A stretch of DNA of 64,000 bases, from positions 86,590 to 150,589 of the forward strand of contig CAZVMN010000007.1 of the NCBI GenBank assembly GCA_964629015.1. Direction: 5' to 3'. Shown here in pieces: positions 5,385 through 40,032 of the stretch. Positions within the stretch are counted from its first letter, which is position 1. Each line of letters opens with the position of its first letter. This stretch comes from an uncultured Oceanococcus sp. Lineage in GTDB: Bacteria > Pseudomonadota > Gammaproteobacteria > Nevskiales > Oceanococcaceae. Below the pieces are notes generated by a model. It made no database searches. It was not told where the DNA came from and was given only the letters and a program-made list of their open reading frames with translations. Position numbers and translations under genes: made by a program.

Positions 5385-5386
5385 CG

Positions 5387-8756: not shown

Positions 8757-10630
8757 TCAGCGACGTAGCGCTGCGGTTCCGGATCGACCCAACGGTTGCC
8801 CGGCACCGCGCTTCCCGCCCACTCTATCGGTAACAATCCGCCGACCAGATTACCCACCGGGTTGAGCAAGGCATCAAGAATGTCGCTCACCGTGCTCAAC
8901 AAAGGTTGAGTTGATGCGGCCACCGGATCCTGACTCGGCGTGGATGCCGCCGAGGTATCCCAGTCATATGAACGGCTCCAAATGTAGGCGCGTGACCAGA
9001 TATAGGCACGGCTCCAGATGTAAGCCCGCGACCAGATGTAGGCACGGCTCCAGATGTAAGCCCGAGACCAGATATAGGCGCGGCTCCAGATGTAGGCGTC
9101 ACCATTCAGCTCGGTCGGATTGCCGTTCTCATCGCGAATCACAAAGTTGCCGTTGGCATCTTCCTGCACCGGGCCAGCGTAGTGCTGCTCACCAGACAGA
9201 TCCTTGGCGATGTCCAGCCCCTGATTGGCGCAGCCAGACGCATCGCTGGCCACCGCATCAGCGGCGTGAATCACACCCGCACCCTGCTGAAACACCGAGT
9301 ACATGGCATCGTTTCCGTGCATTGCCGCATAAGCCGTGCTGGCCAAACGGCATTTCACGTCATCCGGGCTCAGCGTGGGATCGGCCTGCAGCATCAGCGC
9401 GACCACGCCACTCACCACAGCAGCAGATTGCGAGGTGCCAGACATACGGAAGTGACGGTTGTCTTCCAGCAGGTAGGTCTCATGACCTTCAATGATCTTG
9501 GCCTGAGACGGCATCACGCCCATCAAGTGTCCGCCCGGCGCAACAAAATCCGGTTTCACAAAGCCTTCGAAGGTTGGTCCCACGGAGGAAAACTCCGACA
9601 GAAAATTGTCGCTGTGATCGTCCGGCGTGTAGTTGTCATCCGCCGCACCAACCGTAATCACGTACGGAAGATTGCCAGGCACGCCGATGGTCATCGGTTC
9701 CGGCCCGGAGTTGCCAGCGGATGCCACAACCACAATGCCGGCCTGCCAAGCCGCCATGACCGCTTGATTCAGTGGATCGTCCCAGTAGAACGACTGCGGC
9801 GGCGCGCTGAATGACATATTCAGAACGCGGATGTTGTATTCGTCACGGTGCGTGACCACCCACTCGATGCCCTCGATCACGTCCAGATAGGTCGACGAGC
9901 CGTTCTCATCGAAGGCTTTGACATCAACCAGATCAGCATCCGGCGCGATGCCCTGATAGCGACCGCTGGGGGTAATAAAGCTGCTCGCAGCCACCGTAGA
10001 AATGTGTGTGCCATGACCACTGGGATCACCATCGACGTCGTCAATCACATTGACGCGCGCAACGATGCGCGGGGTGCGCAGATTGACCCCCAGCTCCAGG
10101 CCATGGTGCTGCCAAATACCGGTATCCAGAACAGCGATCGACACGCCACGTCCTGTCACCCCTTGGTTGTGCAGCTGATCAGCCGCAACCCACGTGGTGT
10201 AGTTCGTTTCCTTGGGCTGCCACAAAATCAGCCCTTCCTGGTCGTCCAATTCCACGTTCTGAACCACGCCACCGACTGTTCCGCCCAGAGTACCCCCCAG
10301 ACTGCCGAGCAAACCCGACACCTTGACCGGGTGGTTAGCCTGAACACGCAGGGCCGGAGGATCGGTACGCAGCTGCTCAACCTGAGCTGCACTCAGGACC
10401 GCGCCAACACCGCGTATCACGCTCAGTTCGGATTCGACTTCACCGCCCACCCGCTCGACCCAGGCGCGAGCCTCGGCGGCAGTATTGGCTTGAACAATGT
10501 AACGCTCACCATCGACGACGAGCGCTTGCGCGTGAACGCTAGAAACCGAAACAGCCATTAGGGCCAAAACGGCGGCGGCGGAATGGCGAAAAATTGAAGT
10601 CATGGCGTGCTCACTTGTGACTTGAGTCAT
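8753..10630 (-). CDS. secreted S8 (subtilisin-like) serine peptidase with I9-like propeptide and repeat-containing C-terminal tail
   Basis: Signal peptide (AVLALMAVSVSSVHA). Catalytic triad motifs are VLDTGI (Asp), HGTHIS (His) and SGTSQSAA (Ser). The C-terminal tail carries AYIWSR repeats. The true start may be the internal Met at about 10603. Confidence 0.9.
   Translation of the reverse strand: MTQVTSEHAMTSIFRHSAAAVLALMAVSVSSVHAQALVVDGERYIVQANTAAEARAWVERVGGEVESELSVIRGVGAVLSAAQVEQLRTDPPALRVQANHPVKVSGLLGSLGGTLGGTVGGVVQNVELDDQEGLILWQPKETNYTTWVAADQLHNQGVTGRGVSIAVLDTGIWQHHGLELGVNLRTPRIVARVNVIDDVDGDPSGHGTHISTVAASSFITPSGRYQGIAPDADLVDVKAFDENGSSTYLDVIEGIEWVVTHRDEYNIRVLNMSFSAPPQSFYWDDPLNQAVMAAWQAGIVVVASAGNSGPEPMTIGVPGNLPYVITVGAADDNYTPDDHSDNFLSEFSSVGPTFEGFVKPDFVAPGGHLMGVMPSQAKIIEGHETYLLEDNRHFRMSGTSQSAAVVSGVVALMLQADPTLSPDDVKCRLASTAYAAMHGNDAMYSVFQQGAGVIHAADAVASDASGCANQGLDIAKDLSGEQHYAGPVQEDANGNFVIRDENGNPTELNGDAYIWSRAYIWSRAYIWSRAYIWSRAYIWSRAYIWSRAYIWSRSYDWDTSAASTPSQDPVAASTQPLLSTVSDILDALLNPVGNLVGGLLPIEWAGSAVPGNRWVDPEPQRYVAD
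8960..9103 (-). repeat. in-frame 18-bp tandem repeat (8 units including degenerate end units) encoding AYIWSR
   Basis: The plus strand reads successive ccaNatRtaRgcNcgNNN units. The translation is DAYIWSR followed by AYIWSR x6, then SYDWD. Synonymous positions differ between units. Confidence 0.9.
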
Positions 10631-10742
10631 GGCCCTGCAAGTGTCATTCCGCGCCTTTGACGTCAGGCAACACGAATAAGACTCTTGTGGGATTGGCGTA
10701 GACTTTGCACTGCCCTGCGCGAATTAAATGTGAACGGCCGGC

Positions 10743-13700
10743 ATGCCTCGAAACCTCCCCACAATCTCTCGGACGCTGAGCAAAGCTCTGGCTGTGCTCG
10801 TCTGTGCATGCGTGAGCGCTTTGATCACGTCGCCATCGCAGGCCACGCCGGTGATGGTTTTTCAATCGTTGAGCCAGAGCGACGGGTTGTCACAGAACAC
10901 TGTCAACGACATTTTTCAGGACAGCTACGGTTTCATCTGGCTGGCCACAGAAAGCGGCCTGAATCGTTATGACGGCAACACGTTCATACGCTATCAGCGC
11001 GATCATCGAGCCCCACACAGTCTGCCGGCCGATTTTGTTTGGGACATCGCCGAGGACCGCGACGGCAATCTTTGGCTGGCCACGCGCGGCAGCGGTCTGG
11101 TGCGCATGGAGCGAACCCGACACAGATTCTCCAGCGCGCTGAATATCGGGGAGGACCGCTACGCCGATAGCCGCAATGGCCGAAGCTTGCTCATCGACAG
11201 CCGTGGTGACATCTGGATGGGCACGCGCAACGCCGGGGTCATCCAGTACTCGCCACAAGGCGCGATCAAACATTGGTACCGCGGAAGCGACGGCAACCCC
11301 GGGGGCGTATACGACTTGCTTGAGCACCCGGACGGGCGGATCCTCATGGCCACGGACCAAGGCGCTTGGCAGCTCGATCCCGGCAGCGGTGGCATGCGCC
11401 CATTGGGCGGGCTCAGTCAGGCTGCGTCCTCATTGCTGCTGGATGTCTCCGGGCGCATCTGGGTGGGTTATTTCGAGCACGGGCTGGAAAGCCTTGGCAG
11501 CGATGCCACTCAGCGCAAACGTTTTCGCCACAATCCCAATGATGCCGACAGCTTGAGTGATGACCGGGTCCGCAGCCTCTTGCAGGACACTGTCGGGCAC
11601 ATCTGGGTTGCCACCCAAACCGGGCTCAATCTGCGCGAATCTCGAGACACGGGCTTTGTGCGCTTTCGCCATGATCCGGCCAACCCCCTCAGTCTCTCTG
11701 ATGATCGATTGATGTCGCTGGCCCAGGATCGAAACGGTCTGATCTGGATCGGCACGCGCGTCGGCGGCGTCAACCGCTGGAACCCTCGGAGCTGGCTGCT
11801 GGGCGGGTATGAGCCAACCGAGCTTGACGGAGCGGTGATTCTGGCCTTTGCCGATGGCGAAGACAGTCAAACCTGGATCGGTAGCTTCGGTGCACCTCTG
11901 GTGCGCGCGAACGACAGCGGCCAAATCACTGCTCAGTTCCGCCCTGAGGACGGTTTTCCGGCACGCGGCGAATCCCCGGTCACCGCGCTATTGCGCGACC
12001 GCCAGCAACGCCTTTGGATTGGTACATTCGACAACGGATTGCAGATTTACCAGACCAGCGACAGGACTTTGTCTTCGCTGCGTCATGACGCCAAAAATCC
12101 GGCGAGCCTGGGCGCCGACGGCATCATGAGTTTGTTCCAGGATCGTCGCGACGACGTTTGGGTGGGCACGTTTGGCGCGGGCATAAGCCGCGTCAGCGCC
12201 GAGACTCAGCGTGTTGAGCGACTGCCTGCTGATCCAGGCTCGCCCTTGCACAAGACCCGTCCGACGGCGATTGCGGAAGACGGCTTTGGCCACATCTGGG
12301 TTGGCACCGATGGTGACGGCCTATTCCGCCTCAATGTCGATGGCGAAGTCGAGCAAAACTTCCGCCATCTTCCAGGTGACGAGCGCGACCTCGGCGCGGA
12401 TACGATCTATGGACTGCTCGTGGACTCGTTCGGACGGCTCTGGATCGGCACCGCAGATGCCGGTCTGGTCCACCTCGCCCTGGATCAGATGCGCAGCGAT
12501 CGCCCCAGTTTTCAACGGCTCACCGCCGCCCAAGGCCTACCCAGCAACGTAATTAATGGCTTGCGCGAAGATGAGCGCGGTCGCCTGTGGATCAGCACCA
12601 ACCGGGGCCTCGTCCGTTATACCCCGGAAAATGGCGAGCTACGCCAATTCCATCAGGCTCAGGGGCTGCAGAGTGAAGAGCTCAACTTCGGAGCCATCCA
12701 CAAATCCAGCGACGGCCGATTGTTCTTTGGCGGGCATGGCGGATACAACAGTTTCATGCCGGCGAGCATAGAACCGCTGAACAAGCCCCCGCAAATCGTC
12801 ATCACGGCACTGGAAAGCGTGAATCGTCCGGTCACCACCGCTGTGCCCTATCCGGCGGTGCAGGCCATAACCCTTGGCCACCGCGACCCGGTATTGAGTA
12901 TCGACTACGCCGCGCTGGACTTCACCGCACCGCAGCGTAATCAGTACTCGGTCATGCTGGAAGGTTTCGACAGCGAATGGTCGCCTCCCAGTTCGCGGAC
13001 ACGCAGCACGTACACCAACCTCGATCCGGGGCGTTACGTTTTCAAGATCAAAGCATCCAACAGCGATGGCGTGTGGACTGAGCAACCCAAGACGCTGGAC
13101 ATCAAGATCAAACCGGCGCCTTGGGCCACGCTGCCGGCCAAATTTTTCTACGTCGCACTGATGTGCGGCTTACTTTGGCTATTCATGCGCTGGCGCTTGC
13201 GCAGCTTGCAGCGCGAAGCGCAGATCAATCAACTGGCCTACTACGACCGCGTAACCGGGCTACCCAACCGGGATCTGCTGGAACTGCGCAGCGCCAATCT
13301 GATTGAAAAACACGACGGCTTACACCCCTCGACGGCCTTTATTGTGGTTCGCATCGGTCCGTTCAAACATCTCCAGGACAGCCTCGGTTTTCGTTCGACG
13401 GATGACATCATGCGCACCATCAGTCGGCGCCTGTCGCAAGTGATATTCGCTGATGGCGCCAGCAGCGCCTCAAGAGAGCTGGCACGGCTGGGCGAGGAAT
13501 CGTTCGTCGCTGTCATGCAAATGGAAGCGGCCGAAATGCAGGCCATGCGCTGGGCGCGCACGCTCAGCGAAGCGGCCTCGACCCCCGTCGAATTCGGCGC
13601 CCACAAAGTCAGTGTGCAGGTCCGTGTGGGTATCGCCTGCTATCCCAAACATGCCAACGACGTTTTCACCCTGATCAAATGTGCTGACACCGCCGCGCAC

Positions 13701-14552
13701 GACGCCGCGCGTGATGGACAGTCCGGCATCGCCTTTTATGAACACGGCATGACCGAACGGGCCTTGGACCGCCTGACCCTGGAAAGCGACCTGCGCCAAG
13801 CCATCAAAGACGATGAGCTGGAACTTCACCTTCAGGGCAAGTTTGACCGTCAGCGATGCATTGTTGGCACCGAAGCGCTGGTGCGCTGGCGTCATCCGCA
13901 GCGCGGCATGATTTCACCATCCGTGTTTGTTCCTCTGGCCGAGGAAACCGACCTGATACTTGAGCTGGATCATTGGGTTATTGGTCAGGCCTGCGCCACC
14001 CTGGCACGCTGGAAAACCGAAGGCCATGACATCAGCATTGCGGTGAACGTCTCCGCCGAGACATTCATCAGCGGACGGATTTTTTCCGCCCTGAAACGCA
14101 ATCGACAGCGCTACGAATTTGATCCCGCCAAGCTGGAGATCGAGATCACGGAATCGGTGTTGGCCAGCGACATGGACATGATCACCGAGTCGCTCAATCG
14201 CATCAAAGCGCTCGGTCATACGCTCTCCCTGGATGACTTCGGCACGGGCTATTCATCGCTGACCTACTTACAGCGTTTCCCCATCGATAAGCTGAAAATC
14301 GACCAGGCCTTCGTGCGCGATCTGGAGCACCGCAATGATCAACGCGCCCTGTGTACCGCGATTGTGGCGCTGGCCCGCAGTCTCGATATGACCACCGTGG
14401 CGGAAGGCGTTGAGAACCGATTCCAGCTCGATTTTCTATTGTCTCTGGGCTGCGATCAATTGCAGGGCTTTGTGCTGCACAAGCCGCAAGCCGTCGCGGA
14501 CTTTGAACAAGCTTGCCTGCTTCGCGATCAGGTGCCCAAAAACAACTCGTAA
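10743..14552 (+). CDS. membrane sensor: periplasmic two-component-regulator-propeller/Y_Y_Y domain, one TM helix, degenerate GGDEF domain, EAL phosphodiesterase domain
   Basis: Repeated IWxGT/LWIGT propeller motifs. TM helix FFYVALMCGLLWLF. GGDEF site reads RLGEESF. EAL domain retains EALVRW, EITE, DDFGTGYSSL, KIDQAFV and EGVE. Confidence 0.88.
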   Translation: MPRNLPTISRTLSKALAVLVCACVSALITSPSQATPVMVFQSLSQSDGLSQNTVNDIFQDSYGFIWLATESGLNRYDGNTFIRYQRDHRAPHSLPADFVWDIAEDRDGNLWLATRGSGLVRMERTRHRFSSALNIGEDRYADSRNGRSLLIDSRGDIWMGTRNAGVIQYSPQGAIKHWYRGSDGNPGGVYDLLEHPDGRILMATDQGAWQLDPGSGGMRPLGGLSQAASSLLLDVSGRIWVGYFEHGLESLGSDATQRKRFRHNPNDADSLSDDRVRSLLQDTVGHIWVATQTGLNLRESRDTGFVRFRHDPANPLSLSDDRLMSLAQDRNGLIWIGTRVGGVNRWNPRSWLLGGYEPTELDGAVILAFADGEDSQTWIGSFGAPLVRANDSGQITAQFRPEDGFPARGESPVTALLRDRQQRLWIGTFDNGLQIYQTSDRTLSSLRHDAKNPASLGADGIMSLFQDRRDDVWVGTFGAGISRVSAETQRVERLPADPGSPLHKTRPTAIAEDGFGHIWVGTDGDGLFRLNVDGEVEQNFRHLPGDERDLGADTIYGLLVDSFGRLWIGTADAGLVHLALDQMRSDRPSFQRLTAAQGLPSNVINGLREDERGRLWISTNRGLVRYTPENGELRQFHQAQGLQSEELNFGAIHKSSDGRLFFGGHGGYNSFMPASIEPLNKPPQIVITALESVNRPVTTAVPYPAVQAITLGHRDPVLSIDYAALDFTAPQRNQYSVMLEGFDSEWSPPSSRTRSTYTNLDPGRYVFKIKASNSDGVWTEQPKTLDIKIKPAPWATLPAKFFYVALMCGLLWLFMRWRLRSLQREAQINQLAYYDRVTGLPNRDLLELRSANLIEKHDGLHPSTAFIVVRIGPFKHLQDSLGFRSTDDIMRTISRRLSQVIFADGASSASRELARLGEESFVAVMQMEAAEMQAMRWARTLSEAASTPVEFGAHKVSVQVRVGIACYPKHANDVFTLIKCADTAAHDAARDGQSGIAFYEHGMTERALDRLTLESDLRQAIKDDELELHLQGKFDRQRCIVGTEALVRWRHPQRGMISPSVFVPLAEETDLILELDHWVIGQACATLARWKTEGHDISIAVNVSAETFISGRIFSALKRNRQRYEFDPAKLEIEITESVLASDMDMITESLNRIKALGHTLSLDDFGTGYSSLTYLQRFPIDKLKIDQAFVRDLEHRNDQRALCTAIVALARSLDMTTVAEGVENRFQLDFLLSLGCDQLQGFVLHKPQAVADFEQACLLRDQVPKNNS

Positions 14553-25846: not shown

Positions 25847-28834
25847 TCATCCAAATGGTGCGTTCTGCGCGCGCGTAGGCGGCACATCGGGCAGGCCCGC
25901 ATCAGGGCGCCAATGTTTAAGAAACGGCAGGACACCGCCGGAACCACAGGTGTTGGCATCTGCGTCAGCGTAATCGGCGATGACATCATCAACCCAGCGC
26001 ATCAGCAGTTCCACCGCTTCACTGTGGGCCACGGACCGGGCCAGCGGCGGCATTGCCGCGCCGAACTCGGTGGTCGCCACGCGCAGCGGCAGTATGGACT
26101 GTCCCGCATTGCCGGGCTCGATATCGTAGTTGCCGAAATCCGCGGCCTTGCCGGCGGCCACCGGGGGTTTACAAATGCCCTGGCGCTGCCCCATCGGTTC
26201 GGTGAAGGAATCCAACACCAACGCTGAGTTCTGCGCGTTGCCGCCCGGGTTGTGGCAGTGGTAGCAGTTCACTTCCAGGTAGGCGCGCGCACGCTTGTGG
26301 AGGTCCTCCGGGGAATCCGGCACCGCCCCGCTGCCGCCAGGTACATCCCATTTGGGCAAACGCTCCAACTCGGCCGGCGCGGCCGGCAACTCCAACAGAC
26401 CGCGTGATTGCATGTAGGCCAGCTGGTTCATCGGTCCGACATCCGGGTAATCGAACACGCGATTCAAATTGCGAATCTTGGGCCCGATCGGTGGCGCGCC
26501 GGCCTCCAGATCATCGCCACCGTGGCACAGCAGGCAGGAGCCCGCATCCGGCACGGCGTAGCGCTCGCTGCTGCCCTGGTAGTGGCGCACCGTGCCCGTG
26601 CCATCGACAACCTCCGGATCGGGATCGGTGTAATCCCAACGCACGGGAACCGCTGCGCCTTCGATACGTAGCCGTGCCCGGCGTAAACCACTGTTCTCAT
26701 CGGTTTCCCACTGGTACGGCAAACCAACCCAGTAGACGGAGCCATCCACATGACGTCGCTTGATCAGCAAGCGGGTCTCAACCACGTTCTCGTCATCACC
26801 GTCCCGAAACGCGAAGGTCTTGCTCAACACGGTGCCGACCGGAAATTTGAGCGCGGCGGTGTAGCAGTCGTATATGTTCAGCGTGTCGCAGTTCTGCGAA
26901 TCCTGAAATTGCGCTTTCTGAACCGTGCCACCTGGACCGGGCGGCAGAAACAAGAAGCGATATTTCAGGGCGTAATCGGAGAACAGGATGGCGTTCAAAT
27001 CGAATGGAACACCCGGGGCCGAGGGTAGAACGCGCGGATCCTGCGTATCCTGGAACAGCCCATAGTCGGACAAATCAGGGCAGTTGTAGGCCAACACCGC
27101 ATCCATATTCACGGCGCCCGGTTGGCCCTGCCCGCAAACCGCATCAAGCGCAGCCTGACTGGGGCGTGGATCGGCGGATGGGTCCGGCGTAAAACCCGGC
27201 AGCACAGGCACGAACGACGGCAGCAAAGACGCCTCCACCACCGGGCAATCGCTGGGAATCGCATTGTCGGCCGGGACCAGATTGGCCGGGTCAAACGGGT
27301 CCACGGTGGAAAAATGCACGTTGGCGAAATCGCTGACTAGCGGATTCTGCGGATTCTCGTAGCTGTTGTTTTCGATGCACAAGCCATTGGCCGGCTTGTT
27401 CAGCTCGCCCTGCTCATCAAATTTCCACGCATTCCACTTACACGCCGGGATCGGATCGAACTGATAAAAATTGGGCCGACCACGCTCATCGGTGCGCGGC
27501 TCCGGACGCCCAATGTCATTCGGATTGGGTTGGTTCAGCGCGATGCCGTCGCGATCAACCGGCACTTGATCGCAATCGTTGGGCTCATCAACCCCACCAT
27601 CCCAAATGATGTGCGCACTGCGCCCGAGGTTTTTCACCTGCAAAATCAACGGCAATACCGTTGCATTGTCGAGCAGACATTCGGGATTTTCCTGCAAGCC
27701 CGGCAGCCCCAGAATCGGCAGCGCCGGATTGCCCGCACAACCGCTGCGCTCCAGATCCGGCAGGGCCGGCGCATAGCCATTGTTGCGGAAGCTGTTGTTG
27801 TAAATGTGCAGACCTTCGGGGAAGAAATCGTAGTTGGTCGCCGGCTCGTTGATGTCAGCCAGACCGTAATTCACGATCGCCACACCCACGGTCTTGTTGT
27901 CGTAGATCTCGTTGTCGTAAATCTCAACCTGATCCGCTGCCGCAATCAACATGCCGGTGCCTGAGGGAATCACCGCCACAATCGCACCACGCGGAGCAAA
28001 CTGCGGAATATTGTTGTTGTAGGTTTTGTTGCGGTGGACCAGGTTTTTCTCACCAAACTGCACGCGCCCGGGCAGATCGAAGACCAGAAAACCGCCCACA
28101 TTGTCGTGCGCAATGTTGTCGACAAACTCGGCGCGGTAGGTGTTCTCAAACTCGAAACCCGCCACGTTATGAAACGCTTCGGTGCGACGCACGATGATGT
28201 CGCTGGACTGGCCCACGTAGACCCCGGCATCGGACGACCCGACGGACACGCAGTCTTCGATCAAAATGTGGCGGGACACCACCGGGTAAAACGCATAGGC
28301 CCCATTGCCGCTCCACGAATTCATTGAGGCATCGAAGTTTGAAGATGCGGGGTCGGCATTCGACCAGCCGATCTTGACCCGCCGAAACACCACATGCTCA
28401 GAGCGGAACACGCGCACACCGTTGCCCTGCGCGTCGTACACGGTCAGGTCTTTAATAGTGAAGCCGGTGGTTTGATTGACGTTAATGCCGTCCTGCGCGG
28501 GACTGTTGGCGAACGACAGTATGGTCTCGTCCATCCCCGCGCCGCGCACCGTGATGCCGCGTTTGCCGGTCATGGTCAGGCCGGTGGTGAAATCAAACTC
28601 GCCGGCGCAGAACTCGATCACATCGCCTTCGCGTGCTTCGAAAAAGGCGATCAGCGCTTCGCTCTGCGCTTGTGGCCCGGGACAGATGCGAAACGTGGTG
28701 ATCTCGCCCGGTGCCGTGACATCCGGTGCGCTCGGCACCGGCGCGGCATCACGGCCGCCCTGACACGCGGAAAACACCCCCACAACCAAAAGTCCAACAA
28801 TGATGCGATGCATGACGACCTCCCCAAGCGACAT
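25847..28834 (-). CDS. lipoprotein fusing an N-terminal parallel beta-helix repeat module to a C-terminal dihaem c-type cytochrome module (SO_2930/HNE_0200-like)
   Basis: Lipobox VFSAC. Beta-helix repeats carry NGxxVF, VGxSxDAGxYVGQS and HNVAGFEFEN type turns. The C-terminal half has LSDYGLF and FDLNAILFSDYALKYRF, plus two CxxCH haem sites (CLLCH, CYHCH). The start may be the internal Met at about 28813. Confidence 0.68.
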   Translation of the reverse strand: MSLGEVVMHRIIVGLLVVGVFSACQGGRDAAPVPSAPDVTAPGEITTFRICPGPQAQSEALIAFFEAREGDVIEFCAGEFDFTTGLTMTGKRGITVRGAGMDETILSFANSPAQDGINVNQTTGFTIKDLTVYDAQGNGVRVFRSEHVVFRRVKIGWSNADPASSNFDASMNSWSGNGAYAFYPVVSRHILIEDCVSVGSSDAGVYVGQSSDIIVRRTEAFHNVAGFEFENTYRAEFVDNIAHDNVGGFLVFDLPGRVQFGEKNLVHRNKTYNNNIPQFAPRGAIVAVIPSGTGMLIAAADQVEIYDNEIYDNKTVGVAIVNYGLADINEPATNYDFFPEGLHIYNNSFRNNGYAPALPDLERSGCAGNPALPILGLPGLQENPECLLDNATVLPLILQVKNLGRSAHIIWDGGVDEPNDCDQVPVDRDGIALNQPNPNDIGRPEPRTDERGRPNFYQFDPIPACKWNAWKFDEQGELNKPANGLCIENNSYENPQNPLVSDFANVHFSTVDPFDPANLVPADNAIPSDCPVVEASLLPSFVPVLPGFTPDPSADPRPSQAALDAVCGQGQPGAVNMDAVLAYNCPDLSDYGLFQDTQDPRVLPSAPGVPFDLNAILFSDYALKYRFLFLPPGPGGTVQKAQFQDSQNCDTLNIYDCYTAALKFPVGTVLSKTFAFRDGDDENVVETRLLIKRRHVDGSVYWVGLPYQWETDENSGLRRARLRIEGAAVPVRWDYTDPDPEVVDGTGTVRHYQGSSERYAVPDAGSCLLCHGGDDLEAGAPPIGPKIRNLNRVFDYPDVGPMNQLAYMQSRGLLELPAAPAELERLPKWDVPGGSGAVPDSPEDLHKRARAYLEVNCYHCHNPGGNAQNSALVLDSFTEPMGQRQGICKPPVAAGKAADFGNYDIEPGNAGQSILPLRVATTEFGAAMPPLARSVAHSEAVELLMRWVDDVIADYADADANTCGSGGVLPFLKHWRPDAGLPDVPPTRAQNAPFG

Positions 28835-28890: not shown

Positions 28891-29313
28891 ATGCGCCCTG
28901 TTCAATTTCGCATCATGATTATCCGCCTGAACAAAGCCCCGGAAGGGGTCTACCGCCAGCACATCCACATCGACGAACACAGCGTTTTTAGCGATGTCAG
29001 CCGTGAACTGGGCGGTGACGGTTCCGCGCCAGACCCGCACGATCTGTTCGACGCTTCCTTAGCTGCCTGTAAGGCCATCACGGTGATGATGGTGGCGCGA
29101 CGGCGCAAGCTCGCGCTGGACAGCATCGATGTGGTGGTGACCCGCGATGCCAGCGAGGAAGCCAAAGGACGCTATGGCCTGGATGTGGCCATGACCTTCA
29201 ACGGCGATCTGGACGAAGCCGCCCGCACCAAGCTGCTGGAGATCTCCGACAAGTGTCCGATCCACAAACTGATGACTCACGCGGATATCAAGGTCGATAC
29301 CCACCTGGCCTGA
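28891..29313 (+). CDS. OsmC/Ohr family peroxiredoxin-like protein
   Basis: PDPHDLFDASLAACKAI and CPIHKLM carry the two conserved Cys of the OsmC family. Confidence 0.85.
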   Translation: MRPVQFRIMIIRLNKAPEGVYRQHIHIDEHSVFSDVSRELGGDGSAPDPHDLFDASLAACKAITVMMVARRRKLALDSIDVVVTRDASEEAKGRYGLDVAMTFNGDLDEAARTKLLEISDKCPIHKLMTHADIKVDTHLA

Positions 29314-29320
29314 AATCGTC

Positions 29321-30292
29321 CTACCAGTAGGGCGGTGGAGCTTCCAGCGGATCGCCGCAGGCTGAGCATTCGGCCTTGCGCTTGTAAGCGTTGTTTTTCT
29401 TGCCGCAGGTGGTGCAAGCAATCATGACCGGCTTGGCCCGGACCAGCTGATAGACGCGCGAATGCGTGCCGTAGGCCAGGCCCTCCTTCATGAAACGTCG
29501 AACCGCCACTTTGTGGTCTTCGTTGGGCAGAAGATTGGCTTCCAACGCGTCCAGATTTTCCCACGCGGACAAAGTAAATCCGGAGGAATTGCCGTCGGCA
29601 TCCGGTGGGCGCGCTCCGATGATGCCGGTGATGAAACCGGGTTTGTCGGCGAAACTTTCCAGCACCCTGTTTGTGACCTCGGCCGCCTGATCAAACGGCT
29701 CCTGACCGCCGCGCACCTGCAACCACGTTATGCCGATGGCTTCCGGCGGTGCGACGTTGCCACGATTCAGACGATAGTAAGCGCCAAATTGATAGTCGCC
29801 CTGCTCCCTGGGCATCAGCAATGCCATAAAACCCAGCTGCTCGGCCAGAATGTCCAGCCCGAAATGGTTGTCGATGGTGACCAGCCCATCGCGCCCGAAA
29901 CGCACGCTCATGGTGGCGTCGAGCGACAGTTCACGATGAGTCGGAGCCACCGCCTCAATGCCCAATCCACCCGGCAACGGGCCGTCGTGCTGTCCACGCA
30001 AGCGATACCCTGCAACCAGACAGCCATCACCCACCGAAAGTGGCCCGGACAGCTCGAAACTCAGATCGGGAAATGCGGTGATCAAAGCCTGTACATGACT
30101 TTTCAACGCATCGCCAGTGAGCGTGCCCGGACACAGAGGATCGCGATAGCGGCCTGCGCCGATCAGGTCCACAACCGCTTGGACGTCGTGCGCATTCCAG
30201 GCATCGAGAAAGCGCCGTGCAAAGCTCAACATACGCGGCGACTGGACGAACAAGCCTTTGAACAGGCCAGCGAGAATGGCCAACGGACTCAT
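29321..30292 (-). CDS. hypothetical three-module protein: SnoaL-like (NTF2 fold), ABM/Dabb-like module, C-terminal CxxC...CxxC zinc ribbon
   Basis: FLDAWNAHDVQAVVDLI...FPDLSFE resembles SnoaL-type ester cyclases. The central region looks like an antibiotic-biosynthesis-monooxygenase-type fold. The C-terminus is CTTCGKKNNAYKRKAECSACG. Start trimmed to MSPLAIL, which forms an ATGA overlap with the upstream membrane-protein gene. Confidence 0.5.
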   Translation of the reverse strand: MSPLAILAGLFKGLFVQSPRMLSFARRFLDAWNAHDVQAVVDLIGAGRYRDPLCPGTLTGDALKSHVQALITAFPDLSFELSGPLSVGDGCLVAGYRLRGQHDGPLPGGLGIEAVAPTHRELSLDATMSVRFGRDGLVTIDNHFGLDILAEQLGFMALLMPREQGDYQFGAYYRLNRGNVAPPEAIGITWLQVRGGQEPFDQAAEVTNRVLESFADKPGFITGIIGARPPDADGNSSGFTLSAWENLDALEANLLPNEDHKVAVRRFMKEGLAYGTHSRVYQLVRAKPVMIACTTCGKKNNAYKRKAECSACGDPLEAPPPYW

Positions 30293-30777
30293 GCTGAGAC
30301 CTCCTGTTTGACCGCTCGGGCACCCCGCCACAACAACCACGCTTGTGCAAAAGCCGTCGGCACCGCGATCAAAAACAACAGGTAATTCAGAGCGTTACTC
30401 CAGGAGCCGCCGAACTCCAAGCCACGCACGCCAAACAATGCGCCGACCAAAAAGCCCAAACTGTTCGACCAACCGGTGATGCATACGCAGATGATGTACC
30501 AGCGGCGCGCGCCCTGCGTCAGTCGGATACTCGCGCCGGCGGCTGCGAACGCAATCATGGCCAGAGCGTTAATCAACAGCCCCAGGTGTGTGCGGCGCCA
30601 CGCAGCCTCGGTACCGGGCATGTCAATATCCAGCGCCGGAATCAAAGGCCAGGCCGCCACGTGACCAATCGCTTTGAACGTGAATACCAGTCCAATCACC
30701 AGACCCAGGCCAAACAACCAGGCCGCAGGCCCCAGGATGCGAGCCCGCTCCTGAGCACTGAGATACTCTGCTGTCAT
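30289..30777 (-). CDS. small 4-TM membrane protein, styrene-oxide-isomerase (StyC)-like, paralog 1
   Basis: 162 aa. Motifs PGTEAAWRRTHLGLLINA, ITGWSN and VRGLEFGG match my recollection of StyC (PGSxxGWARAHSGxxLNG, DGWSN, NRGLSFG). Paralogous to the 31508..32005 product. Confidence 0.5.
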   Translation of the reverse strand: MTAEYLSAQERARILGPAAWLFGLGLVIGLVFTFKAIGHVAAWPLIPALDIDMPGTEAAWRRTHLGLLINALAMIAFAAAGASIRLTQGARRWYIICVCITGWSNSLGFLVGALFGVRGLEFGGSWSNALNYLLFLIAVPTAFAQAWLLWRGARAVKQEVSA

Positions 30778-30825
30778 CGCCTCTCCTTCCTCTTGTTCGT
30801 GTGTTTTTGACCGCGCGGAACAAAG

Positions 30826-30855
30826 ATTGACACCGTCAATTTAACACTGTCAAAT
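30826..30855. promoter_or_regulatory. two adjacent TTGAC-N3-GTCAA-type palindromes (candidate TetR operators) in the divergent promoter region
   Basis: attgacACCgtcaat is directly followed by tttaacACTgtcaaa. They lie between the divergently transcribed membrane-protein gene and the TetR gene and end about 6 nt before the TetR ATG. Confidence 0.45.
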
Positions 30856-30861
30856 ATATCC

Positions 30862-31482
30862 ATGCCTCGACAAACCCTGAGTGATTCGCAAGTTGAGCAA
30901 CGCCGCGGCGAGATTCTTGATGCCGCCATGCAGCTGTTCGAAGACCACGGCCTTGAGGCGGTGAGTTTTCGTAAGATTGCTGCGCTGTTGGGGTGCAGCT
31001 ACTCCACGCCCTATCGCTACTTCCCGAGCAAAGACGCTCTGCTCACCGCCATGCGGGCGCAAGCGTTTCGCTGGATCGAACAGTCCATGCTCGAAGCCAC
31101 GCGCGAAGAGAGCGACCCGCTGCGTCGCCTCAATGTCCTGGCCGAAGCCTTCATTCGAGCGGGCATCAATCGACCCAAGCGCTATGCCCTGATGTTCTTT
31201 CGCCTGCCCGAACCGGAAACCGGTCCCCATCTGGAAGAACTGACCGCGGCCAAGTTCGATGCGCTGAATGTGTGCACACAAGCGGTCACCGCGGCCCATG
31301 ACAGCGGCGTCCTGCATCTGGAGACCGATCCGCTCACCGCCAGCCATCTGTTCTGGACCGGCGCCCACGGTCTGGTCTCGCTGGAAGTCGCCGGTCAGTT
31401 CGTGATGGGGCGCCGTCTGGATGAACTTCTGCCGGAAATGATCAAAACGCTGCTTCGGGGGCTGGAAGCCAAGCGCGCCTGA
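30862..31482 (+). CDS. TetR/AcrR family transcriptional regulator
   Basis: N-terminal HTH (ILDAAMQLFEDHGLEAVSFRKIAALLGCSYSTPYRYFPSKDALL), 206 aa. Confidence 0.88.
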   Translation: MPRQTLSDSQVEQRRGEILDAAMQLFEDHGLEAVSFRKIAALLGCSYSTPYRYFPSKDALLTAMRAQAFRWIEQSMLEATREESDPLRRLNVLAEAFIRAGINRPKRYALMFFRLPEPETGPHLEELTAAKFDALNVCTQAVTAAHDSGVLHLETDPLTASHLFWTGAHGLVSLEVAGQFVMGRRLDELLPEMIKTLLRGLEAKRA

Positions 31483-31507
31483 GCCCACCATCCCGCATCT
31501 CTCCGCC

Positions 31508-32005
31508 GTGCCACTTCAGGAGTTACCCATGAACGCTGAACTCGACATCATCAAGCGCCGTTTGGTCGGCCATGGCGCCCTGCTGATTTTTCTCGGCGGC
31601 GTCTTGGGATTCGGCTTCCTGTTCTTTTTGATGGAACGCATTGCGCTGTGGCCGTTTCCCTTCAGCGTCGACATTCAACTGCCCGGCACTTACGACGCTT
31701 GGCGCATGGCCCACATGGAAGGCATCGTCAATGGTTTCGGGCTCTGGATAGCCGCCGCCGTTCTGCCGATTTTCCCTTTCGGCATCAAAGGCTTGAATCG
31801 TATCGCCTGGGGTCTGATCTCGGTGGGCTGGACCATCGTTATCGCCTCGGCCATGGACCCACTGTTTCCCGACAGTCGAGGCCTGGAGTTTGGCAGCCCA
31901 GCCACCAACCAAGTCGCGTTCTTCCTGTTCTATTGGGGCGTTGTGCTGGTGATGATCATCATGGGCGTGATCGCCTGGCGCTGCCTCGCCCCGACCAAAC
32001 GCTAG
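31508..32005 (+). CDS. small 4-TM membrane protein, styrene-oxide-isomerase (StyC)-like, paralog 2
   Basis: 165 aa. VGHGALLIF, LPGTYDAWRMAHMEGIVNG and SRGLEFGS resemble StyC motifs. Downstream of and probably co-transcribed with the TetR gene. Confidence 0.55.
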   Translation: MPLQELPMNAELDIIKRRLVGHGALLIFLGGVLGFGFLFFLMERIALWPFPFSVDIQLPGTYDAWRMAHMEGIVNGFGLWIAAAVLPIFPFGIKGLNRIAWGLISVGWTIVIASAMDPLFPDSRGLEFGSPATNQVAFFLFYWGVVLVMIIMGVIAWRCLAPTKR

Positions 32006-32170: not shown

Positions 32171-34486
32171 ATGGTGATTGGGCGACGCGCAGCAGCGCTG
32201 GCAGTGCTGTGGGCAGGCGCAATGCTTGCAGGATGCGGGCAAGGGGGTCGTGATGCGACCACCGCCACAAACAGGGACGATGCGGCAGCGCCGATCATCG
32301 AAGTCCTTTCCAACCGCGCTGACTTGATCAGCGGTGATGACGCTCTGATCAGCGTTCGCACTCAGGATGGCTCGCCGCTGCAAACGGCCAACGTCAGCCT
32401 CAACGGCAGCGACGTCAGCGCACTCTTCCATCCCATGCCCGACGGCTCGCTGATGGGCCGGATCGAAGGGCTGGAACTCGGCGAGAACACGCTCAGCGCA
32501 CGTGCTGGTGGTGGACAAGCGCAGAGCCAGATCTACAACTATCCGAATCAGGGGCCCATCTTTTCGCGCCCGGAGATCAAGCGCTTTCGCTGCCAGGACA
32601 GCGCCACCGACATTCACTGCAACCAGCCGGCCGAGTACACCTACCTCTACCGCCCCACTGCATTTGTCGACAATCTGGATGTGGTCACCGACATCGTGCC
32701 GATTGCCGAGTTGGGCACCGAGCTTCTGCCCTACGACCCGCAGAATCCGCCCGACGATGTGGCCATGACAACCACGCAAAACGGCCAAACCGTGCCGTTT
32801 ATCGTGCGCCTGGAACGTGGCTATCAGGATCGCGATGAATACAAGATTCTGACCCTATTCAACCCCGATGAACCCTGGGAACCTTGGGCGCCGCAGCCGC
32901 AATGGAACGGCAAAATGCTGATCACCCACGGCGGCAACTGTGGCGCCAAGTACCGCCCGGGCAGCGCCCCGCTGGATGACTATTCCGGCACCTTTGGCGA
33001 CTTGCCCCTGCTTGAACCCAGCTACATCTATGCGCTCGGCCAAGGTTACGCGGTGCTGTCGACCGCGCTGGCCAACACCGGACATAACTGCGACGTCGCG
33101 CTGAATGCCGAATCGATCATGATGGCCAAGGAGCGCTTTGTTGAGCAGTACGGTCCGCTGCGCTACACCATTGGCACAGGCTGCTCGGGTGGTTCGATTG
33201 CCCAACTGACCATCGCCAATGCATACCCCGGCCTGTACCAGGGTCTGCTGGTCATGTGCGCCTACCCGGATTCCTTGTCCGCCGGCTTGCAGTTCGCCGA
33301 TTTGCATCTCATGCGCAAATACTTTGAAGCACCGGCGCGCTGGGCACCCGGCGTGATCTGGAATCCATTGTTGTGGGGGCCAGTGGAAGGCCATCTGACT
33401 CATCTCAATGCCATCGTGGCTGACGAGGGCCTGTTCAAAGCGGCCACACAGACCACCGGCGACTGTTTTGGCGAAAACACTTACGATCCCGAAACCAACC
33501 CAACCGGGCAACGCTGCGGCATTCTCGAATGGATTCCGCACATCCTCGGTCAACGGTCACCCGAGGTCTGGTCGGAGATCGAAAAGCAGGTCGGTTACGG
33601 CTTCACCGGCATCCCGCTGGGCAATACCGGGGTTCAATACGGTCTCAACGCGCTGCGTGCCGGCTTGATCACACCGGCCATGTTTGTCGATCTGAACGTC
33701 AAAATCGGCGGTCTGGACATCGACATGCAGCCGCAGGAAGCGCGCACCCGCGCCGACAATCCTGCCGTCGGCAATGCTTATCGCAGTGGCATGATCAATA
33801 TGACCAACAACCTGGATACGGTGCCGATCCTGAATTTCGTCGGCCCCGATCCGGGCATCGCCCATGATGCACTGCACGCCTGGTGGATCCGTTGGCGCAT
33901 CGAACGCGAACACGGCAGCGCGCGCAATCACGTGATGTGGGCCGGCCCGGTGCCGCTGCTCGGCGATCTGTCCTACGTTTACAAAGGTCTGGACGCGATG
34001 GATCGCTGGCTGTCGAATATTGAAGCTGACCTGAGCGACACACCGTTGCCGGACAAAATCTCGCGCAACCGACCTGGCGACATCCAGGACCAATGCGCCC
34101 TGGCGGCCGGCCAACCGATCCTCGGCGAGGTCTGTGTGGATTTGCTGCGACCGCTTTACGCCTATGGCACACCGCGCACCGTCGCAGGCGACACCGAAAC
34201 GGCTGACAATTTTGATTGCCAGCTCAAGCCCATGGATCGCAATGACGACTATGGTCCTGTGCCGTTCACCGATGCTCAGTGGGAACAGCTGCAAAGCGTC
34301 TTCCCGGACGGTGTGTGCGACTACCGCGCACCGGGCAAGAACAAGCAGAAAACGGTGTCATGGCTGAGCTATGTGGATCGCAGCGGCCGTATGGTCGTCG
34401 GCGGCGAACCGCTACCCGCCCCGCCACCAAACTCCGCGACCGGCACGCAGTCTGCTGCGTTCAACTATCCGGTTCGCGACCGCTGA
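32171..34486 (+). CDS. large lipoprotein, putative tannase/feruloyl-esterase-like serine hydrolase (DUF6351-like)
   Basis: Lipobox MLAGC. The GTGCSGGS motif resembles the GCSxGG nucleophile motif of tannase-family esterases. 771 aa. Family assignment is tentative. Confidence 0.45.
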   Translation: MVIGRRAAALAVLWAGAMLAGCGQGGRDATTATNRDDAAAPIIEVLSNRADLISGDDALISVRTQDGSPLQTANVSLNGSDVSALFHPMPDGSLMGRIEGLELGENTLSARAGGGQAQSQIYNYPNQGPIFSRPEIKRFRCQDSATDIHCNQPAEYTYLYRPTAFVDNLDVVTDIVPIAELGTELLPYDPQNPPDDVAMTTTQNGQTVPFIVRLERGYQDRDEYKILTLFNPDEPWEPWAPQPQWNGKMLITHGGNCGAKYRPGSAPLDDYSGTFGDLPLLEPSYIYALGQGYAVLSTALANTGHNCDVALNAESIMMAKERFVEQYGPLRYTIGTGCSGGSIAQLTIANAYPGLYQGLLVMCAYPDSLSAGLQFADLHLMRKYFEAPARWAPGVIWNPLLWGPVEGHLTHLNAIVADEGLFKAATQTTGDCFGENTYDPETNPTGQRCGILEWIPHILGQRSPEVWSEIEKQVGYGFTGIPLGNTGVQYGLNALRAGLITPAMFVDLNVKIGGLDIDMQPQEARTRADNPAVGNAYRSGMINMTNNLDTVPILNFVGPDPGIAHDALHAWWIRWRIEREHGSARNHVMWAGPVPLLGDLSYVYKGLDAMDRWLSNIEADLSDTPLPDKISRNRPGDIQDQCALAAGQPILGEVCVDLLRPLYAYGTPRTVAGDTETADNFDCQLKPMDRNDDYGPVPFTDAQWEQLQSVFPDGVCDYRAPGKNKQKTVSWLSYVDRSGRMVVGGEPLPAPPPNSATGTQSAAFNYPVRDR

Positions 34487-37986: not shown

Positions 37987-40032
37987 CTAGTGTTGCAGTT
38001 CAATGGTCAGCGCTGAAGCCGCATTGCAAAGCGGCGTGTCCGATTCAAAATCCCCGTTGCTGTCATTTTCAAACAGATCAAAGGCGGACACCGCGCTACA
38101 CAGGCCATTGCCGCTGACCCGATAGCGAATGCTCTGGGCGTTCACGATTTGCGCATCGACAGCCACATCAAGCAGTTGCATGGTGATGTCGCGGTCATCA
38201 CCATCGGAGTGAGTCACCTGTATGGTGTGCGCCGTTTTGCAGGTCTGCGGATCGACTTGAAGAACAATCGCACCGCGGGAGCTATCACCACCGCTTTGAT
38301 TGCTGAACGCGAAGCCGAACGCCCGATTGTTTTGCTCGCTGCCGAGATCCTGCCGCGGACAGGGCACATTGCCGAACCCCGGGTAGCTGTGATCGTCGTT
38401 CACAGCACGGACCTGAGCAAATCCATCCTCCCCAGCGGCGTCGGGATAGAACACACCGTCGGCGTTCACATTGAGCGTGAAACGCGCACGGCTCACGCTG
38501 GAAAAATCGAAATCAGCGGGTTCGGGCTCATTGTCCGGCTCGCCTTCAAACACCACGCTGCGCCGCTGGCTGACCGATTGCGCGGTTGCCGTGTTGCTCG
38601 CCGACACCGTCACAACATCCACGGTGTCGGCTTGGGTGGCGGCTGGCACCTGCATGGAAATGCTGCGTCGATTGTTCGAACTGGTGAGCGAATTGGCGGC
38701 CACGGTGCTTCCACCACGCTCAGCTGAGAGCGCGATATCCGCGCCCTGCACACACGACAGGGTGGCACTCGCGGTATACGGTTGATCAAGTTGCGGCGTT
38801 GCCGGCGAGGTCACAAAACGATCCACACTGGGGCTCAGATCGTTGATCACCAACGTCGGAAAGGGTCCCGCCGCGTTGGCGCTACGCTGCTCCGAAGTGA
38901 CGATCCCGCGCGGTTGCGAACCGGGCGCAGCGATGGATGCCCCGGCCTGGAAATCCGCAATGGCCTGCAAGGACACCTGGTCCAGGCCGACGGCGGAATC
39001 GACAGCATTCAATGCCCCTTCCACGTCACACAGGCGATCCAGCATGCTCGGCGTATCCGGCGATGCGCTGAAACTCTGACCCAGGGTGTTACAGGCGAAC
39101 GTACCGCCTGCCAGTGTGGCCAAACATAATGCGCCGGCAGCGCCACCCGTGATCGGTGCGGCCGGCGTGGCCGACGCCAGCACCGCAACCTGCGCGCAGA
39201 ACCCGGCTTGAAACGTCGGGTCGCCGACCAATTGGCTGCCCGCCGGCGAAGCCGCGGGATTGAACACCAGACAGGCTTGATTGAGCAGACTGGAAAAGCC
39301 CGTGCACACCGACTCCAGCTGATCCGGCACATCGATAGGCTGACGCACCGGGACGCGGGCCACGTATCGCCCGGTCTGGCCGGTGGACCAGGCTGGATAG
39401 CGCCCGCTGGACGCGACGCTCAGGCTGGCGAAATTGACCACCACGCCACCGCTGGGATTCACCGCGGTGTCACATTTGGCCACATCCACGGTGACATTGC
39501 CGACCGGTTCAGCGGCTTGCAGCTGAGCCAAGGCATCATCCAGATCCACAATCACCGGGCTGTCCAAACTCACCACACCGCCGATCGAGCGCGCCTCATC
39601 ACCATCGTTGCTGATGATGTCGATGCCTATGCTACTGACGCTACGCGTCGCATTGGCGCCATCCGCTTTCAAGCGTTTCTGTACCGCTTGTCCATCGCTG
39701 TCCAGGTAGGTGAGGCGGATGACATTGCCACGTTCATCGGCGCCACGAATGGGCAAGCCAAACTCATCCACTCCGATCTCGTAGGTTTTGCCCTGCGTGT
39801 CCTGGTAGGACAAATGGGTGATCGCTGTCGGCACACCGTCGCCATCACGCTGGCCAAAAAACGTCACCTGTTCGCCGTTGTCCGCATCCAGTTTGTACAC
39901 CGCGCTGTCGTCCGGATTGACGTAAACGGTGCGCTCGGAAATCGAAGCACCCCCGCCACCTCCACCGCCGCCGCACGCCATCAAAGCCAGTGCAAATCCA
40001 CTCAAAATCGCGCCGCGCCAGTCCGTTGTCAT
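37987..40032 (-). CDS. orphan Cys-rich lipoprotein of unknown function
   Basis: Lipobox LMAC followed by G8. 681 aa, rich in Ser/Ala/Asp/Val and with many Cys. No domain recognised. Same strand as the 7TMR-DISM kinase gene and 80 nt upstream of it. Confidence 0.5.
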   Translation of the reverse strand: MTTDWRGAILSGFALALMACGGGGGGGGASISERTVYVNPDDSAVYKLDADNGEQVTFFGQRDGDGVPTAITHLSYQDTQGKTYEIGVDEFGLPIRGADERGNVIRLTYLDSDGQAVQKRLKADGANATRSVSSIGIDIISNDGDEARSIGGVVSLDSPVIVDLDDALAQLQAAEPVGNVTVDVAKCDTAVNPSGGVVVNFASLSVASSGRYPAWSTGQTGRYVARVPVRQPIDVPDQLESVCTGFSSLLNQACLVFNPAASPAGSQLVGDPTFQAGFCAQVAVLASATPAAPITGGAAGALCLATLAGGTFACNTLGQSFSASPDTPSMLDRLCDVEGALNAVDSAVGLDQVSLQAIADFQAGASIAAPGSQPRGIVTSEQRSANAAGPFPTLVINDLSPSVDRFVTSPATPQLDQPYTASATLSCVQGADIALSAERGGSTVAANSLTSSNNRRSISMQVPAATQADTVDVVTVSASNTATAQSVSQRRSVVFEGEPDNEPEPADFDFSSVSRARFTLNVNADGVFYPDAAGEDGFAQVRAVNDDHSYPGFGNVPCPRQDLGSEQNNRAFGFAFSNQSGGDSSRGAIVLQVDPQTCKTAHTIQVTHSDGDDRDITMQLLDVAVDAQIVNAQSIRYRVSGNGLCSAVSAFDLFENDSNGDFESDTPLCNAASALTIELQH

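Follow-up and report, generated by a model that had tools for sequence, protein, structure and literature searches.

A 64,000-nucleotide stretch of contig CAZVMN010000007.1 from an uncultured Oceanococcus sp. (hereafter the window) encodes two small membrane proteins, SOI1 and SOI2, that belong to the styrene oxide isomerase (SOI) superfamily (PF26512), but not to the StyC equivalog. Their genes flank that of a TetR-family regulator, and the SOI1 gene overlaps the gene of a soluble protein, FUS. We tentatively favour a reading in which both membrane proteins bind haem b and have the SOI fold, their pockets having been redesigned, probably for a hydrophobic, membrane-partitioned substrate other than styrene oxide, SOI1 working together with FUS.

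SOI1 and SOI2 are members of the SOI superfamily

Homology to StyC, which a first-pass annotation of the locus had proposed from sequence motifs, is borne out by profile comparison: NCBIfam model NF045734 matches SOI1 with an E value of 1.8e-13 and SOI2 with 3.9e-13. However, the scores (50.8 and 49.7 bits) do not reach the curated cutoff of 150 bits for this equivalog. The PDB sequences found with phmmer are SOI chains only (8PNU/8PNV and an entry listed as 30tw; E 2e-9 to 4e-6), and the Pfam family PF26512 ('SOI') is precomputed on homologs that are 98-99% identical to SOI1 and to SOI2. A direct Pfam scan of the two proteins returned nothing significant, the library used probably being without the PF26512 model. 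The AlphaFold2 model of SOI1, with a predicted local distance difference test score (pLDDT) of 95.4, consists of four long helices, and its sole significant fold match in the PDB by Foldseek is 8PNU_A, with template modelling (TM) scores of 0.73 and 0.77 over 153 columns. That SOI1 and SOI2 are paralogs is confirmed by BLASTP (34% identity over 129 residues, E 2e-15). Two of the motifs quoted for the pair turn out to be divided between them, GHGxLxIF being present in SOI2 only and GWSN in SOI1 only.

The Foldseek runner-up for SOI1 after 8PNU is the MAPEG family of trimeric membrane enzymes (mPGES-1), with a TM score of about 0.54 that is not significant. This likeness may be a distant parallel in architecture, both being trimers of four-helix subunits with active sites where the subunits meet.

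Haem-site residues are kept and pocket residues are replaced

In the SOI of Pseudomonas sp. VLB120, whose numbering we use, the axial haem ligand His58 is supplied by the neighbouring subunit, while Asn64, Asp95, Asn99 and Tyr103 form a substrate-positioning network in which Tyr103 hydrogen-bonds the epoxide oxygen (PMC11374702). The haem is placed in the membrane half that faces the periplasm, with His58 following periplasmic loop 1 and Arg112 in periplasmic loop 2, and the substitutions N99A and Y103A kill activity (PMC11374702). In RoSOI1 of Rhodococcus opacus, haem and activity are lost in H57A, R111 stabilises the haem, which R111A binds more weakly, and D94A stays active (PMC12502698). 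We aligned 34 sequences of the SOI1 family and 121 of the SOI2 family with the VLB120 enzyme. His58, Asn64, Trp54, Pro48-Gly49 and Arg112-Gly-Leu are invariant in the SOI1 family and invariant or nearly so in the SOI2 family, in keeping with the initial suggestion that the axial His and the Asn are conserved. The catalytic tyrosine, which the first-pass annotation had listed for checking, is Phe in SOI1 and Ser in SOI2; across the families, position 103 is Phe in 34/34 SOI1-type sequences, and Ser in 111 and Ala in 9 of the 121 SOI2-type sequences. Asn99 is retained in the SOI1 family and becomes Ile (90 sequences) or Phe (30) in the SOI2 family, position 95 is Thr in the former and Val or Ile in the latter, and position 60, Gly in the former, is an invariant Glu in the latter (motif WRMAHME). 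SOI1 itself reads His58, Gly60, Asn64, Thr95, Asn99, Phe103 and Arg112, and SOI2 His58, Glu60, Asn64, Val95, Ile99, Ser103 and Arg112. The signature HGNTNF is common to every FUS-linked SOI examined.

An exhaustive phmmer search with SOI1 against 1.84 billion representative proteins (E ≤ 1e-3) returned 112 clusters only, within which two large classes can be told apart by their key residues, one with Gly60 and Tyr103 and the other with Glu60 and Ser or Ala103; the canonical Asp95 is rare among them. By these residues SOI2 falls into the Glu60/Ser103 class, and SOI1 is an offshoot of the Gly class in which Tyr103 has become Phe. The substitutions at positions 95, 99 and 103 are class-specific and fixed, and the genes evolve under constraint: between the window and an Oceanococcus relative (the closest named relatives of the window proteins are Oceanococcus, at 87% identity), dN/dS is 0.05 for SOI1, 0.09 for SOI2, 0.11 for FUS and 0.16 for the TetR gene. 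These ratios indicate that all four are functional genes under purifying selection, and they rule out decayed or spurious open reading frames (ORFs). Taken together, the fixed class-specific changes and the low dN/dS point to redesigned functional pockets rather than to decay.

With Tyr103 and Asp95 replaced in both proteins, and Asn99 in SOI2, SOI1 and SOI2 are therefore not styrene oxide isomerases. The broader proposal of an epoxide-to-aldehyde isomerase is not supported at the same positions, nor by scores at one third of the StyC cutoff; such a label would be an analogy and not a demonstrated assignment. It is possible, though on the unlikely side, that both proteins are nevertheless true Meinwald-type isomerases which turn a non-styrene epoxide (aliphatic, terpene or fatty-acid) into a carbonyl compound, FUS doing the follow-up chemistry. 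This is the sole activity known for the SOI family, the haem ligand and Asn64 are kept, and SOI1 retains Asn99. However, the replacement of Tyr103 by Phe or Ser, and of Asn99 by Ile in SOI2, affects residues whose exchange for alanine inactivates the Pseudomonas enzyme (PMC11374702), and the equivalog scores speak against such isomerases too. Moreover, in other genomes paralogs with both Asn99 and Tyr103 form a lineage of their own, their genes standing in tandem with SOI2-type ones, so that the Tyr-less classes are not simply 'the' isomerase.

FUS and its pairing with SOI1

The first-pass annotation had described FUS as a combination of a SnoaL-like fold, an ABM-like module and a cysteine ribbon; the first and the last are recovered, and the ABM-like module has moderate support. 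The SnoaL assignment rests on Pfam (SnoaL_2, PF12680, 42 bits against a cutoff of 27; SnoaL, PF07366, 30.9 against 28.4) and on Foldseek. The AlphaFold2 model (pLDDT 94.1) has a helix at residues 3-33, an NTF2 cone, a ferredoxin-like domain at 171-282 and a small ribbon, and its top matches are SnoaL2 and AclR (both E 6e-9), KstA15, ChaU and AknH. With these SnoaL-family polyketide cyclases and hydroxylases FUS shares its N-terminal NTF2 cone (E 6e-9 to 1e-6, TM to target 0.7-0.8), but identity is only 17-24%, FUS has in addition the fused ABM-like domain, the zinc ribbon and an N-terminal amphipathic helix, and its gene lies outside any polyketide cluster and is coupled to that of a predicted membrane haem protein. 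LEH and SalBIII, which are epoxide-opening NTF2 enzymes, stand lower in the list with similar scores (about E 4e-6), and their presence in the SnoaL fold would suit a Meinwald-type SOI1 whose product is handled by FUS.

The central domain is predicted to fold as beta-beta-alpha-beta-beta-alpha-alpha-beta. It has no Pfam match in the window FUS alone; five of 13 relatives match ABM (PF03992, best E 2e-4), and a profile matches the ABM protein YqjZ (2GO8) with E 0.006, so that the description 'ABM-like' is moderately supported. The four cysteines of the predicted zinc ribbon (C293, C296, C309 and C312) are invariant in 53/53 aligned sequences, with the spacing CxxC-N12-CxxC in place of the N13 originally given, and a TxSAWE...H motif is also conserved among these relatives. 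The first ~20 residues form a positively charged amphipathic helix that is kept at ≥46% identity and is missing in 31%-identical homologs without an SOI neighbour. The Joint Genome Institute (JGI) names for FUS relatives are 'ester cyclase/heme-degrading monooxygenase HmoA' and 'ester cyclase/L37E'.

The gene overlap noted at first reading is real. It spans four nucleotides (ATGA), the SOI1 stop codon TGA occupying positions 30291-30289 and the FUS start codon ATG positions 30292-30290; the minus strand reads ...AGGAGgtctcagcATGAgt at this point, and an AGGAG ribosome-binding site precedes the FUS ATG. Conservation of the pair in other genomes can be judged at 13 informative loci, each with a FUS relative at least 46% identical (a metagenome scan with a narrow FUS alignment gave 7 loci). 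In 10 of these 13, all distinct, an SOI1-type gene immediately precedes FUS, either overlapping it by 4 nt or separated from it by ≤45 nt: the window, Oceanococcus (L001-3), Sinimarinibacterium (L004), Flagellatimonas (L088), a JGI contig and a contig from the European Nucleotide Archive (L089, L090), the metagenome contigs L092, L093 and L096, and L100, the 49%-identical case. Eight more pairs of SOI1 and FUS homologs are suggested by equal-sized contigs in both homolog lists. The pair thus persists down to 46-49% identity and is conserved across Nevskiales and beyond.

In Sinimarinibacterium and the JGI contig, SOI1 and FUS are the last two genes after an RND/DUF1329/DUF1302/BNR set. The divergent operon reads MMPL (RND), DUF1329, DUF1302, BNR, SOI1, FUS, and a MalT-type regulator. 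The DUF1302/DUF1329/BNR/RND genes form a cofitness cluster in Shewanella and Pseudomonas that has been linked to envelope export, fatty-ester use, and aromatic and steroid clusters (10.1101/072470; 10.1101/2020.07.04.188060). The likeness to the published clusters extends to the MalT/LuxR regulator that follows, as in P. putida PP_0765-0767; they differ in having neither SOI-like nor SnoaL-fusion genes, and the window has none of the four genes. Genes for aldehyde dehydrogenase and acyl-CoA ligase adjoin the SOI1-FUS operon in Sinimarinibacterium and in a JGI contig, a context that suits the favoured hydrophobic-substrate reading as well as Meinwald-type isomerases.

SOI2-type genes are linked to PF10118

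SOI2 has a far larger family, with more than 360 clusters of homologs. A scan limited to one genome per species gave 80 loci, so that 81 including the window were analysed by ORF clustering. Their sources are marine gamma- and alphaproteobacteria, Myxococcota and Actinomycetota, among others, and include Nevskiales, Zavarzinia, Caulobacterales, Erythrobacter, Halieaceae, Porticoccaceae and Cellvibrionaceae. In about 69 of the 81, a gene for a protein of ~296 residues, labelled PF10118 ('predicted metal-dependent hydrolase') by Pfam, stands next to the SOI2-type gene, in nearly all cases immediately upstream and in the same orientation (among L005, L006 and L010-L087, for example L075:9002-9892). 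The residues E55, E85xxH88, E137 and E173xxH176 are invariant in 63 PF10118 sequences, and because of this pattern (E, ExxH, E, ExxH) the protein is probably of the diiron-carboxylate oxygenase type and its present family name probably wrong. A PF10118 representative had no match among PDB sequences even at E 10. The regulators at the 81 loci include TetR (22), MEDS-HTH (12), PadR (9) and AraC (9) types, and genes for SDR, acyl-CoA dehydrogenase, P450, GMC oxidoreductase, aldehyde dehydrogenase and acyl-CoA ligase recur near SOI2 homologs.

A hidden Markov model search of the six-frame translation of the window found no PF10118-like sequence anywhere, and no SOI-family gene beyond SOI1 and SOI2. 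The order TetR then SOI2 directly, without PF10118, occurs in the window, in two Oceanococcus metagenome-assembled genomes (MAGs) and in one other MAG (L012). Sinimarinibacterium and the JGI contig have an operon of TetR, PF10118 and SOI2, to which a GMC oxidoreductase gene is added in Sinimarinibacterium L005. Since the fuller two-operon arrangement is found there, the window looks like a reduced form of a Sinimarinibacterium-type locus from which PF10118 has been lost. L005, from Sinimarinibacterium sp. CAU 1509, also contains, 3-8 kb downstream of its TetR-PF10118-SOI2-GMC operon, a copper membrane monooxygenase cluster (AmoC, AMO, Monooxygenase_B) with a multicopper oxidase (L005:13715-18844), which hints at a link to hydrocarbon oxidation.

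In the sty operon, the StyAB epoxidase is followed by the membrane isomerase StyC and the aldehyde dehydrogenase StyD. The relatives of the window resemble it in that the SOI-type gene comes straight after that of a putative oxygenase, PF10118, and aldehyde dehydrogenase and acyl-CoA ligase genes lie near some of the SOI-type loci. They differ in that PF10118 is diiron-like and not a flavin epoxidase, that it is missing from the window, and that the steps are hypothetical. By analogy with StyA-StyC, the order of oxygenase and SOI2-type genes would support our favoured reading of a rebuilt pocket for another hydrophobic substrate; a diiron-like protein that might act as an epoxidase would equally suit an isomerase for non-styrene epoxides.

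At least 17 of the 81 loci contain a Glu60/Ser103-class gene with a member of the other class (Gly60 or Ala60 with Tyr103 or Phe103) no more than 7 kb away. Most often the second-class gene stands in tandem after PF10118 and the SOI2-type gene (L030, L033, L034, L036, L037, L044, L047-L049, L054, L072 and L079, at ~10000-11050 in each), the order being Glu60/Ser103, then Gly60/Asn99/Tyr103 or Ala60/Asn99/Phe103; L072 has three SOI genes and two PF10118 genes. The tandem second copies were considered as SOI1 orthologs and ruled out, since they are only 19-24% identical to SOI1 and form separate lineages. Each SOI haem site is built from two neighbouring subunits, and mixed trimers of the two classes are therefore conceivable, as are consecutive steps. 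It is tempting, if doubtful, to extend this to a widespread marine pathway in which the two classes, interlocked in mixed trimers whose interface haem sites are non-equivalent or in consecutive steps, would act with PF10118, as an unrecognised diiron oxygenase family, to oxidise and rearrange aliphatic, lipid or terpene substrates, the Oceanococcus locus being a reduced version in which SOI1 was re-wired to FUS. Such a pathway, if it exists, would be a non-flavin, non-aromatic counterpart of StyAB/StyC.

The tight linkage of each SOI class to a soluble partner, whose gene overlaps or adjoins its own, also raises the possibility that the membrane proteins are not enzymes at all. They could be non-catalytic haem-b membrane anchors, scaffolds or redox partners, SOI1 for FUS and SOI2-type proteins for PF10118, with the ABM domain of FUS as a cofactor-less or haem-handling monooxygenase. 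We consider this unlikely. It would account for the loss of the catalytic tyrosine, and ABM does include haem-binding IsdG/HmoA types, in line with the HmoA name of one FUS relative. However, the haem of SOI sits on the periplasmic side (PMC11374702), whereas the partners are presumably cytoplasmic, because of the missing signal peptide and the zinc ribbon, which makes for poor geometry in electron transfer. Likewise, SOI2 is under purifying selection in Oceanococcus with no PF10118 nearby, and FUS homologs function without an SOI neighbour.

The TetR regulator and its probable operator

The regulator has both domains of its family in Pfam (TetR_N, 55.5 bits; TetR_C_33, 59 bits). The operator that the first-pass annotation had placed at 30826-30855 corresponds to a 27-bp palindrome, TTGACACCGTCAA-T-TTAACACTGTCAA, which lies inside the 84 bp that separate the divergent TetR and SOI1 genes, upstream of both, at 9-35 nt from the ATG of TetR and 50-76 nt from that of SOI1. 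The palindrome occurs only once in the 64 kb, and its motif is kept beside the TetR gene in five other loci (L001, L088, L090, L089 and L005), so it is the probable TetR operator. A scan of the region for sigma-70 consensus promoters found none. The same TetR type is divergent from SOI1-FUS in every Nevskiales locus examined, and it heads PF10118-SOI2 operons in 22 of the 81 SOI2 loci.

Gene calls and neighbouring genes

The features of the locus are collected in Table 1. All four genes exist as originally claimed, and the peptide strings quoted for them are found in their translations. Of the divergent arrangement around TetR, the part concerning SOI1 stands; SOI2 is on the same strand as TetR and downstream of it, so that the layout is TetR-SOI2 divergent from SOI1-FUS. 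The 165-residue form of SOI2 does exist as an ORF from GTG 31508, but a start there is less likely than at the ATG that gives 158 residues, since AGGAG lies 7 nt upstream of the latter and relatives have about 158-163 residues.

Table 1. Features of the SOI locus in the window (positions count from the first nucleotide of the window)
Feature	Position	Strand	Evidence
FUS, 323-residue soluble partner of SOI1	29321..30292	-	ORF listing, Pfam, AlphaFold2, relatives
SOI1, 162-residue four-helix membrane protein of the SOI superfamily	30289..30777	-	ORF listing, homology, AlphaFold2
Probable TetR operator, 27-bp palindrome	30827..30853	n/a	Inverted-repeat search, conservation
TetR-family regulator, 206 residues (TetR_N + TetR_C_33)	30862..31482	+	Pfam
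SOI2, 158-residue membrane protein of the SOI superfamily (most likely start)	31529..32005	+	Homology, ribosome-binding site, start codon
DUF6351 (tannase-like) lipoprotein, 771 residues, 165 nt past SOI2	32171..34486	+	Pfam PF19878, 687 bits
OsmC/Ohr-like peroxiredoxin, convergent with FUS	28891..29313	+	Pfam OsmC, 55.8 bits

Among 30 large ORFs from the whole 64 kb that were scanned with Pfam there are no styA, styB, styD or paa genes, as had been stated before; the other scanned large ORFs are housekeeping and unrelated genes. The two immediate neighbours of the module were considered as core parts of it and set aside, their membership being doubtful because the adjacency is lineage-local. 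The DUF6351 protein and its Oceanococcus ortholog share 95% identity (dN/dS 0.03), and its gene may be co-transcribed with SOI2, but it adjoins SOI2 only in Oceanococcus loci (L001-3, L008, L009) and not in other SOI2 loci. The OsmC gene adjoins FUS in Oceanococcus loci, and another OsmC gene lies near an SOI-less FUS homolog (L099).

TetR control is typical for responses to toxic hydrophobic compounds. In combination with the OsmC/Ohr-like gene, which is convergent with FUS and conserved in Oceanococcus loci, and with the OsmC gene at L099, this could suggest an envelope or oxidative-stress detoxification unit that clears lipid peroxidation products (epoxides, aldehydes and hydroperoxides) and includes the peroxiredoxin. 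However, OsmC is absent from Sinimarinibacterium, Flagellatimonas and the other SOI1-FUS loci as well as from the 80 SOI2 loci, and we regard such a unit as very improbable.

Several genes elsewhere in the window deserve mention in their own right. A 995-residue lipoprotein (25847-28834, minus strand) combines a right-handed beta-helix (NosD-like) with two C-terminal CxxCH haem-c motifs (CLLCH and CYHCH). Its gene separates the PfkB and OsmC genes; since these two are immediate neighbours in Oceanococcus L001-L003, it is an insertion relative to those loci. Two overlapping genes at 4233-6328 (plus strand) encode an EgtB-like protein (DinB_2 + FGE-sulfatase) and an EgtD-like histidine-specific methyltransferase (Methyltransf_33) and look like an ergothioneine biosynthesis pair. 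A 681-residue ORF at 37987-40032 (minus strand) has no Pfam match at E 1e-5, is conserved in Oceanococcus L001 and L002, and stands upstream of the genes for a paired 7TMR-DISM histidine kinase and LuxR response regulator. Finally, a 1269-residue signalling protein encoded at 10743-14552 (plus strand) carries Reg_prop/Y_Y_Y sensor repeats together with GGDEF and EAL domains.

Discussion

What SOI1 and SOI2 may do in the membrane can be sketched as follows. TetR would repress the two divergent operons, TetR-SOI2 and SOI1-FUS, until a hydrophobic ligand releases it from the palindrome common to both promoters. SOI1 and SOI2 would each form a trimer of four-transmembrane-helix subunits with one haem b per subunit interface, held by His58 in the periplasmic half of the membrane, its propionate anchored by Arg112. 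The open Fe(III) site would then most likely act as a Lewis acid and rearrange, or convert in a related way, a non-styrene compound that partitions into the membrane, such as an oxygenated lipid, terpene or hydrocarbon derivative. FUS, presumably cytoplasmic and made stoichiometrically with SOI1, would probably attach to the membrane or to SOI1 by the amphipathic helix at its N terminus and carry out the preceding or following step. This scenario is supported by the hydrophobic-substrate gene context of the relatives (RND/DUF1329/DUF1302/BNR, P450, GMC and others).

Several observations weigh against it. Tyr103 and Asn99, essential for the only characterised activity of the family (PMC11374702), are not both kept, and isomerase chemistry may have been lost rather than retargeted. 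Pfam scans of the large ORFs and the six-frame search turned up no epoxide-forming oxygenase in the 64-kb window. FUS homologs occur with no SOI neighbour (L094, L099 and L101 at 47-55% identity, L091 at 31%), so that FUS is not strictly dependent on an SOI gene. Haem binding is a prediction from conserved residues, and the literature holds no experimental work on any member of either subfamily or on PF10118.

Compared with the characterised StyC/SOI proteins (VLB120, PDB 8PNU/8PNV; RoSOI1), SOI1 and SOI2 are alike in their length of ~160 residues, their four transmembrane helices, their homology (E 1e-6 to 1e-9), the fold of the SOI1 model and the conserved residues Pro48-Gly49, Trp54, His58, Asn64 and Arg112-Gly-Leu, with which the haem-b site at a trimer interface is probably retained. 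They differ in an identity of only 21-28%, in the low equivalog scores, in the exchanges Tyr103 to Phe or Ser, Asp95 to Thr or Val and, in SOI2, Asn99 to Ile, in the absence of sty and phenylacetate genes from the 64 kb and the related loci examined, and in their partners, FUS for SOI1 and, in relatives, PF10118 for the SOI2 class. The fold family is already known through PF26512; the subfamilies and their partners are new, and in the literature we found no account of SOI subfamilies that lack the tyrosine, of a link between these and FUS or PF10118, or of PF10118 itself.

SOI is in demand as a biocatalyst, and it is one of the rare enzymes in which haem serves as a Lewis acid. To our knowledge, it is the only enzyme known for the Meinwald rearrangement, and only members from styrene clusters have been studied. 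The two conserved subfamilies described here keep the haem-site residues and have rebuilt the substrate pocket, each with a distinct soluble partner; the cassette with PF10118 is widespread. Work on these proteins could uncover new reactions or substrates for haem as a Lewis acid, show what PF10118 does and account for the frequent co-occurrence of two SOI classes, which would be of relevance to biocatalysis and to marine hydrocarbon and lipid metabolism.

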